This document shows, in pieces, positions 28,200 to 36,552 of a stretch of 64,000 nt of DNA. Position 1 is the first letter of the stretch, and each line of letters begins with the position of its first letter. The translations under genes were made by a program, and so were the position numbers. Location of the stretch: positions 288,001 through 352,000 of the forward strand of contig CAWVRN010000001.1 of NCBI GenBank assembly GCA_963932905.1. The letters are read 5' to 3'. Origin of the DNA: an uncultured Bdellovibrio sp. GTDB lineage: Bacteria; Bdellovibrionota; Bdellovibrionia; Bdellovibrionales; Bdellovibrionaceae. Below the pieces are notes generated by a model. The model was given only the letters and a program-made list of their open reading frames with translations, made no database searches and was not told where the DNA came from.

Positions 28200-29303
28200 A
28201 TGACTAGTTTTGCTTCAATACCTAAGACCGTAGTAACTTTTTTGGTGCTATTTTTTAGCTTACTTGTATTGGCAGATACAACGAACGATTTTTCTGTCAA
28301 CGAAGACCCATTTAGGTTTGATTTAAGTCTTTTAGCTTATAAATCTCAAAATATTTCTACACTTCATATGAATAATAGAATACTCAAAGGTCCGCTGAAA
28401 GGTGAGGAATTAGACTCGTCCGAAAAACGCCCAACCGTCATTGTACATCAAGATGGTGATCGCTGGATTATCGCTAACTTTCATCACATAGATAAGTTTT
28501 ATTTCGCTTCAATTCCTGTAAATGAAGTTGAAAATACTTTTTTTAATATCGTAAAATTTATGCCGGGTGCCGCTCACGCGATGCTTCGTTTTAAAATGAA
28601 AAAAGGTAAATATGTTACTTTGCTGGCAGAGGGTCCTTCGGAAGACGAATTTAAAAAAGGAATTACCGTTAAACCCTTAGAGCGACCGATTCTTCTAAGT
28701 GATATTTTTCTTTCCGTTGAATCTACGTGGACTAAAGGTCGCGACGGCTACGAGTTGCACCGTATATTTAAAGGACATTACGTAAATACATTTAGGATGG
28801 TTTCTTTGGCGACGCGTGCTATGACTTATTATCGCGACGACACGGTTCCTACCGAACAAGTTAAAACAAATTTCAGTTTTGAAGAATCCAGTGAGGCTCT
28901 TAAAAGGAGCATCGAACTATCAGATAAATACGGTCAGTTCAGACCCTACAATTTGTTCAAGAGAAATTGCGCGACTGAGGTCTTTGAAGTGATTGATTTT
29001 GTTACAAATAAATTTCGCTCAGGTGCCAAGGCAACCGGCATTAAAGAACGTTATCACCGCATGCTAAATCGCTTTGTCGGATTTGTTCGCTTTTACCCGT
29101 TGCTTTCCAAGTATGTACTTGTTTGGGCGGGATTGACCGAGGGTAAGGGCCGGGTGACTAATTTAGAATTGGAGGCCGAGAACGGTCCGATTTACAAGCT
29201 CGAAAAAGAACGACAAGATTTCAATCGCGCGGAAGAAATTCGAATGAAGCGCGCGCTTTGTTTGAAGGTTTATGAGCCGGCCACGGTGACCGCCTCCCAA
29301 TAA
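28200..29303 (+). CDS. Secreted DUF4105/Lnb-N-like permuted papain-fold protein
   Basis: AHAMLRF (His), LSVE, YNLFKRNCATEV (Cys); signal peptide; C-terminal CLKVY. Confidence 0.75.
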   Translation: MTSFASIPKTVVTFLVLFFSLLVLADTTNDFSVNEDPFRFDLSLLAYKSQNISTLHMNNRILKGPLKGEELDSSEKRPTVIVHQDGDRWIIANFHHIDKFYFASIPVNEVENTFFNIVKFMPGAAHAMLRFKMKKGKYVTLLAEGPSEDEFKKGITVKPLERPILLSDIFLSVESTWTKGRDGYELHRIFKGHYVNTFRMVSLATRAMTYYRDDTVPTEQVKTNFSFEESSEALKRSIELSDKYGQFRPYNLFKRNCATEVFEVIDFVTNKFRSGAKATGIKERYHRMLNRFVGFVRFYPLLSKYVLVWAGLTEGKGRVTNLELEAENGPIYKLEKERQDFNRAEEIRMKRALCLKVYEPATVTASQ

Positions 29304-29522
29304 ACAGCACGGGGCGTTGTTGCTTGTGTAATGTGTTTTGCTGCTATTGCTGTCGTCCTTTGGTTTTCCTTTCGTCATTTTCTCTCAAAGAGCTTCCTCC
29401 GGTATTGAAATAACTTTAGTAGAGTTAGATCTTTAAAATGTTGACAAGCGCTGCCTCCCACTCGGATCATTTTTTATATGATCTGATCAAGGTAAACTAA
29501 AACGGAATTTAGTTGGAGGGGT

Positions 29523-30518
29523 ATGACTAAGAAGTACGGTTTTTTGCTGTTCGTATGCTTATTGGTTGCAACGACAGACGCATTTTCTGCCACTTGGAAA
29601 CGCATTTACATTCCGGGGGCTAAATGTGGAAACGGATCTGCGTTCAGTGTATTCGTAAGGCCAAACAGTCCAGATAAGTTGCTTATTGAATTCATGGGTG
29701 GGGGGGCATGCTGGGATCAAGCTAGTTGTCTTTATCGAACTTGGATCTATCCTGTTCCCCAGTTAAACTCGTACGGCGCAATGACCGATCAAACGAATCC
29801 GTTAAATCCGTTTAAGGACAGCTCGACTATCTACATTCCTTATTGTACCGGGGATGTTTACGCGGGAGACTACACCGCGCAGTATTCGATTTCTAAGATC
29901 AACCACTGGGGTCATAAAAACGTAAGACTGGCGTTAGATCACCTTGTGAGATCTAAAATCGTCGATTTTAAAGCTTTTAATGACGTCGCGGTTTTGGGCT
30001 CGTCTGCGGGCGCTATAGGCTCGCTATTGCACGTAAAGTACATTGATGGGCTACTCAAGCCAGAGGCCCGCCGCACGCTTATAGCGGATTCTCCGGGCCT
30101 TCATTTTGGCGCTACGTTCTGGGATCGTTTTGGTACAGAAGCTAGAACTAGCTTTCAAAAGGCATTCGACGAATTAGGGCTCCGCATAGATTTTAATGAC
30201 GGTTTTATTGCACGCAAAATAGCGCCTATTCTTGACAGCTTAACGAACTGGAAAATCGGCTTTTTATATGGTGAGCGTGACGCCATCATGTCTGAGTACT
30301 TTGGACAGATTTCTAAAACCGACTACCAAAATCTATTACTTGGCGCCGAGGGAATTGTTGAAACCAGCAAGCGTTATTCTAATGTTAACGTTTGGCTATC
30401 TGACTCAGACAATCACATTTTCCTATTATTCCAAGACAAATATAATTCTAAATCCGTTGATGGTGTACCGGCTATCGGCTTTGTAAAAAACATTCACGAA
30501 TCAAACCTCGGAAATTAA
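29523..30518 (+). CDS. Secreted pectin acetylesterase-family hydrolase
   Basis: C.NGS, FMGGGACWD, YIPYCTGDV, GSSAGAIG. Confidence 0.88.
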   Translation: MTKKYGFLLFVCLLVATTDAFSATWKRIYIPGAKCGNGSAFSVFVRPNSPDKLLIEFMGGGACWDQASCLYRTWIYPVPQLNSYGAMTDQTNPLNPFKDSSTIYIPYCTGDVYAGDYTAQYSISKINHWGHKNVRLALDHLVRSKIVDFKAFNDVAVLGSSAGAIGSLLHVKYIDGLLKPEARRTLIADSPGLHFGATFWDRFGTEARTSFQKAFDELGLRIDFNDGFIARKIAPILDSLTNWKIGFLYGERDAIMSEYFGQISKTDYQNLLLGAEGIVETSKRYSNVNVWLSDSDNHIFLLFQDKYNSKSVDGVPAIGFVKNIHESNLGN

Positions 30519-30523
30519 AATTT

Positions 30524-31462
30524 ATGAAAAAAATGGCGACCATCCTCCTCTGTTTGTTAGTACTATTCATGGTAGCTCGTGTTGTTTTGAAAACTCCAAT
30601 CGGCAAACAAAAAGTCGTCGACTTCACTCCCTCGAAAAAAGAATGCGGTTCAGTGCCGGAATTTGCGGGACTGCGATATTGTGTTCATCTTCCATTATCT
30701 GGCGCTCCAAACGGTGATATCGCCTACGTACTACATGGAAAAGACCAAAATGAGTTGATGTGGAACTATGAATACTTATACGGAGCTCTGGTCCAAAAAT
30801 ACTGGGAACAAAATAGAATAGTACCCCCTACAGTTGTTTCGATTTCTTTTGGTCCCGTATGGTTGCTAAGCCCCAAGGGTACTTTACCTGACAGCGGTCT
30901 AATGGATTTATTTGTAGATAGAGTTATTCCTATGATCGAAAGCAAAATTGGTAAACCCCAGAACCGTCTTGTGTTTGGCGCTTCGATGGGTGGCATGAAC
31001 TCGCTGAGTTTGGGTTTGTTACACGGAAACCTTTTTAAACGCGTTGGAGCTGTGTGTCCGGTGATGTACATGGAGACTCCGTATTCGAACCTATCTGAAA
31101 TGAAAACTTTTCTTCAAAGTACAGGTGCTGAACCCTACAACATAATGATAGCTATCGCCCTCAGTCGTCGCTATTTTTCTAACAAAGACGAATGGGATCA
31201 ATTCGCGCCATTAAGCTTAATAAATCGCGAGAATATTCAATACAATACAAAGTTTTATTTGAGCGGTGCTCTTTATGACGAATGGGGAGTCTTCCGCGCT
31301 GAAGAAACGTTTGTTGAAAAAGCCCAAGCTAAAGGCGTTTCCGTCGAATGGCACCCGCAATTTGGCCCGCACTGTGTTGTGGACGTGGGCACTTTAGCTG
31401 AGTTTTTAGTTGCCGATCATCGGATCGTCCGCGAGTTAAAAAAAATCACCGCTCAAAAATAA
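30524..31462 (+). CDS. Exported esterase (alpha/beta hydrolase)
   Basis: YVLHG, GASMGG, D...GPHC. Confidence 0.85.
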   Translation: MKKMATILLCLLVLFMVARVVLKTPIGKQKVVDFTPSKKECGSVPEFAGLRYCVHLPLSGAPNGDIAYVLHGKDQNELMWNYEYLYGALVQKYWEQNRIVPPTVVSISFGPVWLLSPKGTLPDSGLMDLFVDRVIPMIESKIGKPQNRLVFGASMGGMNSLSLGLLHGNLFKRVGAVCPVMYMETPYSNLSEMKTFLQSTGAEPYNIMIAIALSRRYFSNKDEWDQFAPLSLINRENIQYNTKFYLSGALYDEWGVFRAEETFVEKAQAKGVSVEWHPQFGPHCVVDVGTLAEFLVADHRIVRELKKITAQK

Positions 31463-31671
31463 AAGTTATTGTTGGTGGGTATCAAACCCAACGTTGTTTT
31501 TGAACTTGGGCATCTAAACTTGTGTTCTTTAGTAACCGAGGAACTAGGACGCCTTTATGTGCGCTAGTTCCTTGATATCGTTTCGCCGGCACTGGAATTT
31601 TTTATGAACAGATCAATTTTACTGTCAAATTGACGCTCAGAAAAACAGTCTGATGGCGGTATCTAAAAAAC

Positions 31672-33741
31672 CTATTTTTGATAAAACCATAAACACTTGT
31701 TGGGCAAGTTTCTCTTGGTTAAGTTTTCATAGTATAATTCACCCATCCCTTGAGGAGAGAACGCAATTTGCGCATCTGGCTTAGCTAGGAGCTTAATTCT
31801 TTTCGGAAAAACGGCATTCATTGCTACTCTCATAGCTGCCCGCACGGGTTTCTTGATCGTCAAAGGGACATTAGTTGTCACACTTCCACTTAACGACCCA
31901 TCTACGAATGCATATCTTACAGCAGAGGCTTTGTACGGTGAACTTTCTAAGCTTTTTACGGCTTCTTCATAAACGTCAATTGGAAATGCGATCCCCTTTA
32001 GGCCCTCTTCAGTAGTTTGCTGAGGTAAAATTCCAGCTGATTCAAGAACTCGACGCGCCAATGTTGCGCAATTACATGTTTTAACATCGTAGCCAATCTT
32101 TTTAGCTTGGAATTCTTTCTCGATCGCATCGAACTCTGTTTGCATTTTTTGTAGTACGTTTTCCGGAACGCCGTTGTATCGGATACCGATTGATTCGCGA
32201 CCATAGGCCTGGCCGTTAACACCCATAAAACCATAGTTTTCAAAGATTTCGGGCCGCGCCTGAGTCGAATACAAGTATTCCGCTAATGAGCTTTGTTCAT
32301 GTAACCGACCTTCGCCAATTTTTGATCGGTAATTAACTGTGTACACTTTATCTTTAATACGGATAGCGATGTGACCAAATGGATTTGAATCTCCACCTAA
32401 GTCTAAATATCGACCGTTTTTAGATAGTGGATAACCCAATATAATTTCAAAATTGGACGGATAGTCATTATTTAATTGATTTAGTGTTTCAAATTGCCTT
32501 TTCACTTCGCGACCACCGAACGTACCAAGAGGCGCTATTTCCACTCCATCTTTTGGTCCCGTCAAATCAGATGTTAAAGCCGCTTCTGATATGCGATCTA
32601 GGCCTGCTGCACTGGCAAAATCTTGTTGTCTCCGAGTCATCTGTTCGATCCCGACTTTGTCGGCGCTTAATTTAGCAACTAGGGCACCGACCTGCGAGGC
32701 ATCTGTTGTATTCAGTGACATTCCATTTTTAGAAAAGAATTCTGAGTGCGCGCGCTCGTGGCCCTTATACTCATCGACGATAATCATTGGTTTGTTGAGT
32801 AACGCACCTTCAGCCGGAGAAAGGCCGCCACCTTTAGTAATGAAAACATCGGCCATTTTGATACCCGCAATTACTTTTTCACGAGGTACGAAACCATACA
32901 GATTTATTTTTACTCGGCTAGGAGCTGTTTTAGCAAAATCTTCGACCGCTTTATAAGCCTCTGGTGGGCGGCCGGTGAAAACATTAAATTCCAGTTCGCC
33001 GGGATTATCGCGAATGATAGATTGCAATATTTTAACGTTATCTTTAAGCCCTTCTTTTCCTCCCATCATCGTTACAAGCAACGCGCCGGGTTTTCTAGGT
33101 GGCAAATCGGCCGCCACTATTTTTGAAACTGGTAGTGGCACTAAAGCCAGTTGAACTTTTTCCGGTGGAACACCATATTCAGTCCAGTAATTAATTTGGG
33201 AAGCATGAGGAACAAATGTCATGTCCACGCGGTGTGAAATCCGCGGGAAGAAATGCTCAAGATAGTCTGTAAATACCCAGATTATCTTAGTTTTCATATT
33301 GGCTTTTTCACGTGCATTAGACAAAGCGATGGCGCTACCGTAATGGGTCGCGATTATGGAATCTGGGTTGACTTGTTTAAGCCATTCAATAATCCCATCC
33401 ACATTGTAATTGTTAGCGCCCGCAAATTTAGAAAAATTCACAACAGACTGACCGTTGTGAATGAATCTGTCAAAGGCCCACTCGAGGACATTAGGGGCGT
33501 TTTTTACAACCCACCAGTAAGTTTTACGATCGACAGCTTCTGTTTTAGGATTCATGAAGTCTCGAATATTTTTGCGAATGACTTTTACGGTTGGATCTTT
33601 GGCCTCTAAATCTTCTTTGATGGCCTGAGCCGCGATTTCGTGACCCGAACCCATCGATGATTCAAAAATCACTACAGTCTTTGCAATTGAATTTAGACCG
33701 ACAAAAATAAACGCTATGGATAATACGCTCTTGATAGACAT
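31672..33741 (-). CDS. Signal peptide + UgtP/MGDG-synthase-like glycosyltransferase + C-terminal permuted papain-like domain
   Basis: SSMGSGHEIAAQAI, IIATHY, VFTDY, MGGKEG, YGFV, ADVFITKGGGLS.AE, GHE; then NPFGHIAIRI and YDVKTCNCAT; ends CLWFYQK. Confidence 0.8.
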   Translation of the reverse strand: MSIKSVLSIAFIFVGLNSIAKTVVIFESSMGSGHEIAAQAIKEDLEAKDPTVKVIRKNIRDFMNPKTEAVDRKTYWWVVKNAPNVLEWAFDRFIHNGQSVVNFSKFAGANNYNVDGIIEWLKQVNPDSIIATHYGSAIALSNAREKANMKTKIIWVFTDYLEHFFPRISHRVDMTFVPHASQINYWTEYGVPPEKVQLALVPLPVSKIVAADLPPRKPGALLVTMMGGKEGLKDNVKILQSIIRDNPGELEFNVFTGRPPEAYKAVEDFAKTAPSRVKINLYGFVPREKVIAGIKMADVFITKGGGLSPAEGALLNKPMIIVDEYKGHERAHSEFFSKNGMSLNTTDASQVGALVAKLSADKVGIEQMTRRQQDFASAAGLDRISEAALTSDLTGPKDGVEIAPLGTFGGREVKRQFETLNQLNNDYPSNFEIILGYPLSKNGRYLDLGGDSNPFGHIAIRIKDKVYTVNYRSKIGEGRLHEQSSLAEYLYSTQARPEIFENYGFMGVNGQAYGRESIGIRYNGVPENVLQKMQTEFDAIEKEFQAKKIGYDVKTCNCATLARRVLESAGILPQQTTEEGLKGIAFPIDVYEEAVKSLESSPYKASAVRYAFVDGSLSGSVTTNVPLTIKKPVRAAMRVAMNAVFPKRIKLLAKPDAQIAFSPQGMGELYYENLTKRNLPNKCLWFYQK

Positions 33742-34122
33742 TTGATTTTCATATTCGCTGAATTTTAGGTGGGATTAATTTCCCAAATAACCTACCAACG
33801 ATCCTGTTGTACACACAATATAGAATTTTCAAAAAAATTCCACTGTAGAGAAATAGACAATCGAAGGTTTTACCTGTCAAAAATATTCACAGCCTTTGAT
33901 GGGTTAATTTGTTTACACGTGTTTTTTTTGAACCTGTGACAAAAAAAGTCTTTTTTCTTAGTTTTGGGAAGAAAAATTCTGAAAAAAAATCTGGGCATTT
34001 TAAACAATTTTTTCGAAATTTCGACCGGTAAAGAAGAAATGTTTTGCATCCTGGGTACCATCGAGAAATCGATTTTACGTCATATGTTGTAAAATCGGTT
34101 AGAATCTACTATGTGTTTACTT

Positions 34123-35076
34123 ATGAAAAAAACAATTCTCATTTTAATCTTGATACTATTTCCGCTAATCGGACTCGTTCTGAGTCTGACTATCTATTCT
34201 CCCGCATACGACGTTACTCATTTTATGAGTCGAAAGTTGTCTCTAGAGGTGAATCTGCAAAAACCTGAAATAAATTTGGCAACCATTAGGCCTGGGACTG
34301 AGCAGATGATTCGCTGGAAGGACACCAAAAAGCAAGATGAACGTGAGTACGCTTTTGTATACATACACGGATTTACCGGCCATAGAGGTGAAATTTCACC
34401 TCTTATTGAAGATATCCAAGACCAGTTTGATGCAAATTTGTTTTTCGCTCGTCTCGCTGGCCACGGCATTGAGGGAAAAACAATTCGCGCAGCCACCATT
34501 ACCGATTGGTTTACTAATATCGATCAGACTTATGCTTTTGCCAAACGATTAGGGAAAAAAAGAGTTTACGTAGGCGCATCCACCGGCGCAGGTATGGCCA
34601 TGCTATTGACAGAGAAGTACGATCCTCAAAGCTGCTTAGTTCTGTTGTCGCCAAACTTCGGTTTAAGTAGCGAACTTACAATGCTTGGTACGGGGCCACT
34701 CGGCTATGTGATAACAAGTTTGTTTGTGGGCAATAGCGCCTCGGACTATGTGACGCTCTACCCAAGCGAAGAGGAAAGCCTGGTATCCACACGAATAGAT
34801 GGAAATAGCCTAAATCAGTTTTTAGAACTGACAAAAATTTTCAAGCAGTATAATTACGAAAATTATGAAAATCCCGTTCTAATGCTTTATTCAAAAGAAG
34901 ATACTGTTATTGATCCTGGTGCTGTCGAGCGTGTGTTTAGAAGCTTAAAAAAGAACCCCAACAATCAGATATACAATGTTGGCACCGGTCATCTTTTATT
35001 TGAAAAAGATGACACGACCGCACTGCAAGATACAAAACAAAAGATTATTAGCTTTATTCAAAAGAACTGTCAGTAG
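34123..35076 (+). CDS. Membrane-anchored alpha/beta hydrolase
   Basis: YIHGF, RLAGHG, GASTGA, DTVID, GH. Confidence 0.85.
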   Translation: MKKTILILILILFPLIGLVLSLTIYSPAYDVTHFMSRKLSLEVNLQKPEINLATIRPGTEQMIRWKDTKKQDEREYAFVYIHGFTGHRGEISPLIEDIQDQFDANLFFARLAGHGIEGKTIRAATITDWFTNIDQTYAFAKRLGKKRVYVGASTGAGMAMLLTEKYDPQSCLVLLSPNFGLSSELTMLGTGPLGYVITSLFVGNSASDYVTLYPSEEESLVSTRIDGNSLNQFLELTKIFKQYNYENYENPVLMLYSKEDTVIDPGAVERVFRSLKKNPNNQIYNVGTGHLLFEKDDTTALQDTKQKIISFIQKNCQ

Positions 35077-35085
35077 GACGGCAAA

Positions 35086-36552
35086 CTATTGTGCTTTAGA
35101 TAAAGTATAAAATCTCAAGCACATGTTAATAGGTGTACGCTTTCTAAACTGTTTCACATAAGATGGATTCTCTTTACGTACTTTATCAATCAATTTATAG
35201 ATTTCTTTTGGCGACATCGGCACACCGTATTTTTCGTAGTGTTCTTTGTATGCAGGCGCTATCGCTTTCCTCATTTTAGTCACGTAGAGCATAGACGCGG
35301 CTAAGAGCGCTAAATTTTTGGGTTTGATTTCTGTATTTAAATGCATTCCTAGCATGCTCATAATCCTATTAATATATGGTCTCCCTGCAAGACCCACAAC
35401 AAAACGGGCAAATTGATCATGTAACGGACCAGGGACAAATTCCAAGTTTTCCGTTCGTAACCAGAAAAACATTTTATCCACAATCAAGTCGTTTAAACGG
35501 GCTGCTGGGGTTAACTTCGGATTGCGATATTCGTAAATCAGGTGGAATGTCGAATCTAAATCGATATCCGTCGGTGCAAAAGTGTACTTGCTTGCCTTCG
35601 GAATACTCAGGCCTTCGAGGTACCCTCCATTTTTATGCAACAGGCGGCTGGGAAACTCAGGAATTACTTCTTTCTGCTGAATAGAATTGTATGCCCAAGA
35701 AACAAACTTAGAACAATAGTATTTGCAATTTTCTTTGAGACCCATGGATAGGTCGTACTGCAGTGGCTTCCCAATACGAATACCCTCTTCAAATTTCTCG
35801 TTCCCGAAGTTTCCTGCCATTCTTCCCAGTTCAGAATTTTTTGGACGATATACAGCCACGCGAACCATATTTTCAAAAAATGCCGGCGTAAGTTCTGTCT
35901 TCTTAAATCCGGTATTCAAAGTCGACTCTACGACATATTTCTTATTGGTGACGGGGTCAGCGTAAACCAATGCCATATGTGAATATGTCAATGGCGCGTC
36001 CCCAATCCGTGAAATCATAGCGCCTAGAAACAACAGGGTTCTAACTATTATGATATCTCCTGTTTTTAACGATTCGATGGAACCATCAAAGTCATGGCCT
36101 TTGGTAGAAAACGCGGTGAGGTTTGTAAACGGCAAGAGCATTTTGTCTTTTGGTTTTGTAGGTAAGGTATTATAAATTTGTTCATACAAGTAGTCTTCTA
36201 GGTATCGAATGCTCGATATCACTGTCTTTACGTCCTCAGCAATATCGTCCCGGCCAGCATAGTCGATGGGCAAACCATTTAGCGACGATTGCAGCATTAA
36301 TTTAATTGTGTGGAGTTTGGTGACGGTTTCTAGTGCTTTTGTTTTTTCCAGCTCCAAATCTAGGTCGAGCGGATTGACGTTAAAAAGTTCGGATTTAATA
36401 GAAGTTAACGAAGCCATCAAGTGAGAATAATCACCCGTCGAATTTTTTATGCGAGTCTCTACTGAATTCAGTGTCGACATCAAATCTATAGACGCCGCAT
36501 TCAGGGCGCTTAAGTTAACTAGCAATAGCAAAGACAGCAAAAGTTTCTTCAT
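35086..36552 (-). CDS. Secreted YiiX/YebB-like permuted papain (N1pC/P60) enzyme
   Basis: LKTGDIIIVR, ISRIGD, YSHMALVY, YDLSM, YYCSKFV; signal peptide from MKKLLL (36552); C-terminal CLRFY. Confidence 0.85.
   Translation of the reverse strand: MKKLLLSLLLLVNLSALNAASIDLMSTLNSVETRIKNSTGDYSHLMASLTSIKSELFNVNPLDLDLELEKTKALETVTKLHTIKLMLQSSLNGLPIDYAGRDDIAEDVKTVISSIRYLEDYLYEQIYNTLPTKPKDKMLLPFTNLTAFSTKGHDFDGSIESLKTGDIIIVRTLLFLGAMISRIGDAPLTYSHMALVYADPVTNKKYVVESTLNTGFKKTELTPAFFENMVRVAVYRPKNSELGRMAGNFGNEKFEEGIRIGKPLQYDLSMGLKENCKYYCSKFVSWAYNSIQQKEVIPEFPSRLLHKNGGYLEGLSIPKASKYTFAPTDIDLDSTFHLIYEYRNPKLTPAARLNDLIVDKMFFWLRTENLEFVPGPLHDQFARFVVGLAGRPYINRIMSMLGMHLNTEIKPKNLALLAASMLYVTKMRKAIAPAYKEHYEKYGVPMSPKEIYKLIDKVRKENPSYVKQFRKRTPINMCLRFYTLSKAQ

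Follow-up and report, generated by a model that had tools for sequence, protein, structure and literature searches.

An apparently undescribed cysteine-led tag at either end of exported proteins in an uncultured Bdellovibrio

The window analysed here is a stretch of 64,000 nucleotides from an uncultured Bdellovibrio sp. (assembly GCA_963932905.1, contig CAWVRN010000001.1, positions 288,001 to 352,000), in which three genes for exported enzymes end in the same short motif, C-L-x-[FV]-Y. These genes, hereafter referred to as genes 1, 2 and 3, encode an Lnb/DUF4105-like protein, a fusion of a GT28-type glycosyltransferase with an Lnb-like domain, and a YiiX/YaeF amidase, respectively (Table 1). 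Our analysis of the source genome (G000; 4.55 Mb, 98.6% complete), which the names of homologues place with Bdellovibrionaceae/Pseudobdellovibrionaceae, showed that the motif, with the core C-x-x-[FV]-Y, is real and that it is apparently an undescribed tag, for which we infer a sorting function. We hold with moderate confidence that it acts after Sec export, that a host-encoded carrier reads its free cysteine and that the proteins bearing it are delivered into prey.

Genes were called with a simple open reading frame (ORF) script, yielding 4,197 genes, and signal peptides were called with in-house hydrophobicity heuristics, not with SignalP. Among the 1,474 signal-peptide proteins of the source genome, CxxFY was found 26 times in the last 16 residues, against 0.2 expected from its internal rate, and 29 times in the 30 residues that follow the hydrophobic region, against 0.5 expected; only 3 copies were internal. 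CxxVY contributed 3 more C-terminal and 8 more post-signal copies, and the positional enrichment of the tag is about 100-fold. The original prediction had asked whether such tails are more frequent than chance among Sec substrates, and at the termini of signal-peptide proteins they lie far above expectation; its narrower form, CLx[FV]Y, is found at the end of 13 of 3,814 proteins, about 35-fold above its internal rate. No such motif was found among the top enriched motifs of lipoproteins or of 1,863 leaderless proteins.

A curated set of 79 tagged proteins was obtained from 85 loose matches by dropping 13 by eye (membrane proteins, lipoproteins or Cys-rich chance matches) and adding 7 from a profile scan. 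The tag lies right behind the signal peptide in 46 of them and at the C-terminus in 33, with the consensus (N)-x-C-x-x-[FV]-Y. The Asn at position −2 (32 of 79) is a better extra determinant than the Leu at +1, found in merely 25, or the basic patch, which is weak (mean K/R 2.0 vs 1.4 per 10 residues, p=0.004) and lacking at the N-terminal tags. Thus, the CLx[FV]Y tails of the original prediction are real, but the Leu residue and the basic patch were dropped from the core, and the restriction to the C-terminus was abandoned in view of the post-signal copies. The Cys of C-terminal tags is mostly 5–14 residues from the end, with 0–9 residues mostly remaining after the Tyr, and that of N-terminal tags is 3–19 residues behind the predicted signal peptidase I cut in 35 of 37 cases, with polar residues before it. 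None of the 79 proteins was tagged at both ends, which is uninformative, since about one such case would be expected by chance.

Tagged chains are markedly depleted of other cysteines. Exactly one Cys was found in 31 of 57 tagged mature chains, compared with 79 of 809 untagged ones (p=3e-15), and non-tag Cys residues occurred at 1.4 per 1,000 residues; the corresponding figures are 8.8 for 694 exported proteins without the tag and 9.5 for cytosolic ones. At least four Cys residues were found in none of the 57 tagged chains, but in 255 of the 694 untagged exported proteins. With this depletion, of about six-fold, the tag Cys is usually the sole non-catalytic Cys. This argues against an intramolecular disulfide, and no intramolecular partner was found for the tag Cys. 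It suggests that selection reserves this residue for a partner, or keeps cross-links out of the cargo.

Not all members of a protein family bear the tag, which lies outside the fold and at whichever end of the mature chain is free. The source genome encodes four YiiX paralogues without the tag, and untagged exported paralogues were also found for tagged APP1 phosphatase, PhoD and S41 proteins. Of 14 YiiX homologues from relatives, five end in CxxFY, one in CxxIF and eight in neither; the five are all from the same genus, and two of them are merely 22% identical. The relatives of gene 1 were recovered by an exhaustive search (a word-based search gave one): among the 150 homologues listed, gene 1 included, a looser pattern identified a C-terminal tag in 22, an N-terminal tag in one and none in 127. 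In single-chain AlphaFold models, the tag was modelled as a terminal helix in gene 3 (residues 477–487, with pLDDT below 50 for residues 479–488) and in gene 2 (residues 681–688, pLDDT below 50); these models were built on alignments of 15 and 23 sequences, and their low confidence is therefore weak evidence alone. Together with the many untagged homologues, they support the earlier proposal of a second signal on Sec substrates, one that behaves as portable and separate from the papain fold.

The presence of the tag follows that of the leader in the homologues of gene 2. All 13 of the 27 homologues with a signal peptide end in a Cys tag, which fits C-x-x-hydrophobic-[FY] in 12 and is looser in one (P0012); the other 14 are untagged. 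Where named, the former are from Bdellovibrionaceae and Bdellovibrio and the latter from Syntrophaceae, Desulfomonilia and Lebetimonas, so that the named non-predator homologues of gene 2 do lack the tail, a point that the original prediction had left to be checked. The untagged proteins begin directly with the enzyme in 11 cases, with a non-hydrophobic extension in two and with a membrane-anchor-like stretch in one; two of the 14 have a near-end Cys without the hydrophobic pair. This split indicates that a cytoplasmic enzyme shows leader and tag together in the predator lineage. Similarly, 13 of 15 matches to a RelA/SpoT-domain cargo protein have a leader and an N-terminal CxxFY (one is a fragment and one deviates), and the tag Cys is the sole Cys in 12 of the 13. 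The source protein of this family, a small RelA/SpoT-domain protein with signal peptide and tag (G000:C23:62823-63944; L027:7495-8613), is a candidate exported alarmone-synthetase effector. The fusion without signal peptide (P0013-P0027) in Syntrophaceae, Desulfomonilia and Lebetimonas pairs a glycolipid synthase with a papain-fold acyl enzyme, and we found no functional description of it.

All 79 tagged proteins were scanned with Pfam: 34 were matched, of which two were set aside as low-complexity artefacts, leaving 32 annotated proteins and 47 without usable annotation. The cargo covers many folds, and the restriction to papain enzymes implied by the original prediction was therefore dropped. 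Thirteen of the 32 belong to families that need cytosolic co-substrates: a RelA/SpoT protein, two ABC1 kinases, two ClpB-type AAA+/M41 fusions, a UDP-glucose pyrophosphorylase-like protein, a PPDK ATP-binding protein, a peptide deformylase-like protein, two acyl/acetyltransferases, the MGDG synthase, an ADP-ribosyltransferase and a PARP-like protein, the last of these below the cut-off. Lipid enzymes are also represented (three PLD, a GDPD, an APP1 phosphatidate phosphatase, a glycerol-phosphate oxidase and the papain amidases), and the remaining annotated proteins are peptidases and phosphatases; no porin, binding protein or chaperone was found among them. As a control, 71 untagged signal-peptide proteins from 480 kb gave 41 with Pfam matches, mostly normal envelope proteins, with six of cytosolic type that resemble mis-called housekeeping genes; the excess among annotated proteins is significant (13/32 vs 6/41, p=0.016). 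The Walker A/B and protease motifs are intact in one AAA+ fusion, as are the kinase motifs in one ABC1 protein. Many tagged enzymes need a cell interior to work, and the tag therefore probably marks cargo for delivery into prey by an as yet undescribed route. The delivery into prey put forward in the original prediction is backed by the cargo list, from which we infer it. The ADP-ribosyltransferase exoenzyme and weak PARP-like domains are found on tagged exported proteins at G000:C32:6959-8005 (L200) and G000:C44:3671-6508 (L206).

The last two residues of the tag differ between lineages. In the source genome, they are FY in 58 and VY in 11 of 82 terminal matches (13 expected). Orthologues of a gene pair on contig C30, for an AAA+/M41 fusion and its FGE-domain partner, were found in five named Bdellovibrionales metagenome-assembled genomes (MAGs). 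The AAA+ protein of one of these loci, L080, is 92–100% identical per 100 residues to that of the source genome, except in the last block (DNA about 86%), with the tail CSEIF instead of CELFY, and its FGE partner starts with CAQIF instead of CLEFY. The operon has CxxIF in L080 and L081 and CxxFY on both partners in the source genome, matching the dialect of the latter; in genome G176, its CxxLF is the same as that of three unlinked tags in 200 kb. The operon (G000:C30:10543-18670, L017; L080-L084) consists of an exported ClpB-type AAA+/M41 fusion and one to four exported FGE-sulfatase-domain partners, and is conserved in the five MAGs and very alike even between distant genomes; the similarity between L080, L081 and the source genome runs several kb past the operon, suggesting a mobile unit.

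The spread of the tag was estimated from samples, not censuses. Two tags were found in G017, against 0.2 expected, and one match each in the samples of G396, G226 and G027 (196–200 kb), convincing in G027 alone. The DNA pattern for N-x-C-x-x-F-Y clearly exceeded its reversed control in the source genome (68 vs 42) and its congener G001 (44 vs 30); among the other 149 genomes, counts were mostly at or below the control and in a few modestly above it. That for [RS]-C-E-x-[VIL]-F gave 759 matches against 455 over 81 family genomes, being higher in 66 and lower in 10; such counts are noisy, as merely 3 of 14 matches in G081 were true terminal tags, one of them on an ABC1 kinase. Clusters of such tagged proteins, with the CxxΦF form, include members named B. 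bacteriovorus. At the C-terminus of GT28 homologues from other families of the phylum there are related Cys helices, such as CVRAL, CSRAL, CARLF and CLQIY. The exact FY form thus looks genus-level and the tag family phylum-wide, with a density that varies widely. At L103-L112, the Cys-led helices that close the GT28 homologues of other Bdellovibrionota families are longer, basic and amphipathic, and may be further dialects of the tag.

We propose that the tag is a portable, second-step sorting signal on Sec-exported chains. A host-encoded reader in the periplasm would bind it as a short helix with the Cys and both hydrophobic residues on the same side (i, i+3, i+4), most likely through a mixed disulfide, and would pass the cargo to an outer-membrane route at the site of contact with prey; this route might be a type II secretion system (T2SS), a type IVa pilus, one of the two Tad systems or another machine. 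The reducing cytoplasm of the prey would then undo the link and free the cargo, and enzymes dependent on ATP, GTP, NAD, acyl-CoA or UDP-sugars could work there; the three enzymes of the window would act on lipids and lipoproteins of the prey, remodelling them. The final residue pair of the tag would be a lineage dialect fitted to the reader. The source genome has four secretins, read from gene order and sequence appearance as those of a T2SS, a type IVa pilus and two Tad loci, the T2SS secretin adjoining GspC-like and GspE-like genes on contig C14; a predicted Sec signal peptide together with a T2SS in the genome is what would be expected of T2SS substrates. Inspection of 79 untagged single-Cys exported proteins revealed no obvious carrier. 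In a bolder form, which we put forward tentatively, Bdellovibrionota would have an effector pathway of their own, in which an either-end, five-residue Cys tag, a lineage-specific periplasmic carrier and a reversible disulfide bring dozens of folded or unfoldable enzymes into the prey cytoplasm.

Several observations weigh against delivery by such a reader. The leaders rest on in-house heuristics, and a stricter one accepted 57 of the 79 as plain signal peptides, classing three as membrane proteins and two as lipoproteins and finding nothing in 17. That this uncultured lineage is predatory is an assumption based on its family. The excess of cytosolic types is not significant over all proteins (13/79 vs 6/71, p=0.22), and the motif patterns did not match the deformylase-like protein, one of the ABC1 kinases or, for Walker B, the second AAA+ protein; divergence or loss of activity is therefore possible for part of the cargo. 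A scan of 77 neighbouring genes, mostly housekeeping or unassigned, identified no reader, carrier or channel and no recurring transporter or modifying enzyme. Nor does every relative use the tag widely, as a 400 kb sample of G045 contained one tag against 0.9 expected. In G173, which has the operon in its CxxIF form, no other tag was found in 400 kb (0.7 expected by chance), and a match to the host dialect is therefore not shown in that genome.

It is possible, although unlikely, that the partner of each tag is another tag: an intermolecular disulfide between two short helices would lock cargo outside the cytoplasm into dimers or bundles of several enzymes, a dedicated reader would not be needed, and export beyond the periplasm would follow ordinary routes. 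The free Cys and the depletion of other cysteines would fit equally well. Furthermore, 25 of the 79 tagged genes have another tagged gene at most five genes away (14 expected, p=0.012), there are 10 near-adjacent tagged pairs, the AAA+ and FGE-like partners switch dialect together, and G173 has their operon as its only tagged unit in the sample. However, the other 54 tagged genes are unlinked by this measure, one common tag cannot confer partner specificity, and a self-contained pair that has moved need not adopt the resident dialect, yet matches it in the source genome and in G176.

We find it rather improbable that lipidation or another modification of the Cys anchors the enzymes to the predator's outer membrane or vesicles, as in MYXO-CTERM proteins or surface lipoproteins, with contact or vesicle fusion then bringing them to the prey. 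An invariant Cys in a terminal tag is a hallmark of the lipid-linked sorting signals described in the available part of 10.1101/2023.06.07.544157, and the genome has a T2SS. Nevertheless, no transmembrane helix, Arg-rich cluster or hydrophobic segment was found behind the motif in the tagged chains, the Cys being several residues from the end in C-terminal tags and, in N-terminal ones, mostly 3–19 residues behind the predicted signal peptidase I site without a lipobox; disulfide chemistry would also explain the depletion of other cysteines more easily. Of the three roles offered in the original prediction for the Cys (lipidation, disulfide tethering and transporter recognition), lipidation is therefore the least favoured. 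It is highly unlikely that the tag serves to hold toxic enzymes safely in the periplasm, a chaperone or inhibitor binding it to keep them inactive or unfolded without setting their route. Many of the cargo proteins would harm the membranes of the producer (PLD, GDPD, phosphatidate phosphatase and papain amidases), and no recurring immunity gene was recognised among the 77 neighbours, but the untagged exported paralogues occur in the same genome and cargo that depends on nucleotides would have no activity in the periplasm in any case. There is very little chance that the segment is structural, packing on each fold, or a chance motif: the shallow single-chain models say little on this point, but the positional enrichment, the diversity of unrelated folds, the many untagged family members and the lack of an intramolecular Cys partner largely rule it out.

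Table 1. Tagged genes of the window, their tags and their untagged neighbours
Feature	Position	Strand	Remarks
Gene 1: predicted exported Lnb/DUF4105-like permuted papain protein, C-terminal tag	28200..29303	+	367 aa from ATG at 28200; ORF call
Gene 1 tag, C-L-K-V-Y	29259..29273	+	Cys codon at 29259, 14 residues before chain end
Gene 1 His and Cys motifs	His AHAML 28572-28586; Cys RNCAT 28962-28976	+	
Gene 2: predicted exported fusion, MGDG-synthase/GT28 glycosyltransferase and Lnb-like papain domain, C-terminal tag	31672..33741	-	689 aa
Gene 2 tag, C-L-W-F-Y	31681..31695	-	Cys codon at 31695, 7 residues before chain end
Gene 3: predicted exported YiiX/YaeF (C92) permuted papain amidase, C-terminal tag	35086..36552	-	488 aa from ATG at 36552
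Gene 3 tag, C-L-R-F-Y	35107..35121	-	Cys codon at 35121, 11 residues before chain end
Untagged exported neighbours (pectinacetylesterase-like, esterase)	29523..31462	+	Internal negative control; ORF call, Pfam
Untagged alpha/beta hydrolase, between genes 2 and 3	34111..35076	+	Pfam; same position between the orthologues in G001

The three tails and their Cys codons lie where the original prediction had placed them (Table 1), and its His-before-Cys motifs were found in all three enzymes (AHAML/RNCAT, GHIAI/CNCAT and SHMAL/YCSKF). Its assignment of all three to permuted papain enzymes holds for gene 3, which matches Pfam Peptidase_C92 (PF05708) above the cut-off (E 1e-7), has a catalytic His and Cys invariant in 15 sequences, and has YiiX (2if6, E 5.6e-7) and 3kw0 as the best Foldseek matches of its model. 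The other two match weakly: Lnb_N scores 20.6 bits for gene 1 (E 3.6e-4) and 16.8 bits for the C-terminal half of gene 2, both below the curated cut-off of 22.2. One homologue (P0044) carries PF13387. BLAST detected no similarity between genes 1 and 2. In gene 2, H457 and C558 are invariant (23 homologues), and the N-terminal half, not mentioned in the original prediction, matches Pfam MGDG_synth (E 9.9e-10) and, below the cut-off, the NCBIfam diglucosyl-diacylglycerol synthase. The neighbouring pectinacetylesterase, the two alpha/beta hydrolases and the GH1 enzyme are all untagged, as had been noted. The congener G001 keeps the cluster in part (G001:C60:29450-37262; L004, L096), with four consecutive tagged genes (unknown protein, YiiX, GT28-Lnb and Lnb-like) around the same untagged hydrolase, and in G002 and G005 the YiiX gene is found in another genomic context. 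Cys at the second-last residue is about twice as frequent as expected in the source proteome (74 vs 36 per position), and the hydrolase at 34111-35076 also has a second-last Cys, possibly another terminal signal.

Searches of openly accessible full texts aimed at the tag or at Bdellovibrio secretion found no description of it, and the tag is not mentioned in the available parts of PMC12419801, PMC12622784, PMC4876506 and PMC12546842. According to the accessible part of a 2025 review (PMC12428579), the experimental evidence on secretion in Bdellovibrio-type predators is limited and other dedicated systems may await discovery. The tag bears on how these predators get enzymes into prey. A short linear tag singles out candidate effectors, 79 in this genome and more than half of them unannotated, and its Cys is a handle for fishing out the proposed reader; a direct test is feasible in the tractable B. 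bacteriovorus, with the CxxΦF form. If the proposed function is true, sequence alone would suffice to predict the effector set of each predator from its tags, and reporter proteins could be sent into prey with the tag.

Among known systems, the lipobox signal of the Lgt/LspA/Lnt pathway also has a conserved Cys near the N-terminus of exported proteins. However, the Cys of the tag follows a type I site at a distance of several mature residues, or is C-terminal; the tags do not have the [LVI][ASTVI][GAS]C arrangement with Cys at +1 directly behind the hydrophobic region, and the heuristic classed only two of the 79 as lipoproteins. The C-terminal domain of the type IX secretion system and the N22 peptide of curli CsgA are portable post-Sec signals that choose cargo for an outer-membrane machine, but they are at a fixed end, 22 to about 80 residues long, without an essential free Cys and from other phyla, and the tag does not resemble them in sequence. 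The three window enzymes share their His-before-Cys order with YiiX/YaeF (C92; 2if6, 3kw0) and Lnb/DUF4105, gene 3 matching YiiX by profile and fold; the tag itself is foreign to these families, most homologues being untagged. We could find no described counterpart for so short an either-end signal. As far as the available part of 10.1101/2023.06.07.544157 describes them, tripartite Cys-CTERM signals of the MYXO-CTERM type are alike in that they are short, terminal and built around an invariant Cys, and occur in each genome on dozens of Sec-exported proteins that are unrelated to each other, and MYXO-CTERM is found in a predatory phylum and requires the T2SS; they consist of a motif, a transmembrane helix and an Arg cluster, are C-terminal only and are cut by an intramembrane protease. 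The Bdellovibrio-type tag shares the invariant Cys in a short motif (by definition of the motif, its position being strongly enriched), but has about five residues, no membrane segment and, in 46 of the 79, a post-signal position; NCBIfam sorting-domain models did not match the three window proteins. For the chemistry only, AB toxins offer a precedent, with a single Cys linking the enzyme to its delivery partner and reduced on arrival, as in typhoid toxin, in which the available part of PMC6469816 describes an enzymatic subunit tethered by a disulfide (CdtB-PltA); these have one cargo and one co-encoded partner, whereas here there are about 79 unlinked cargo proteins and a presumed bacterial target. 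What is new here is the genome-wide census, the equivalence of both ends, the depletion of Cys, the cargo profile and the gain of leader and tag by a cytoplasmic enzyme.

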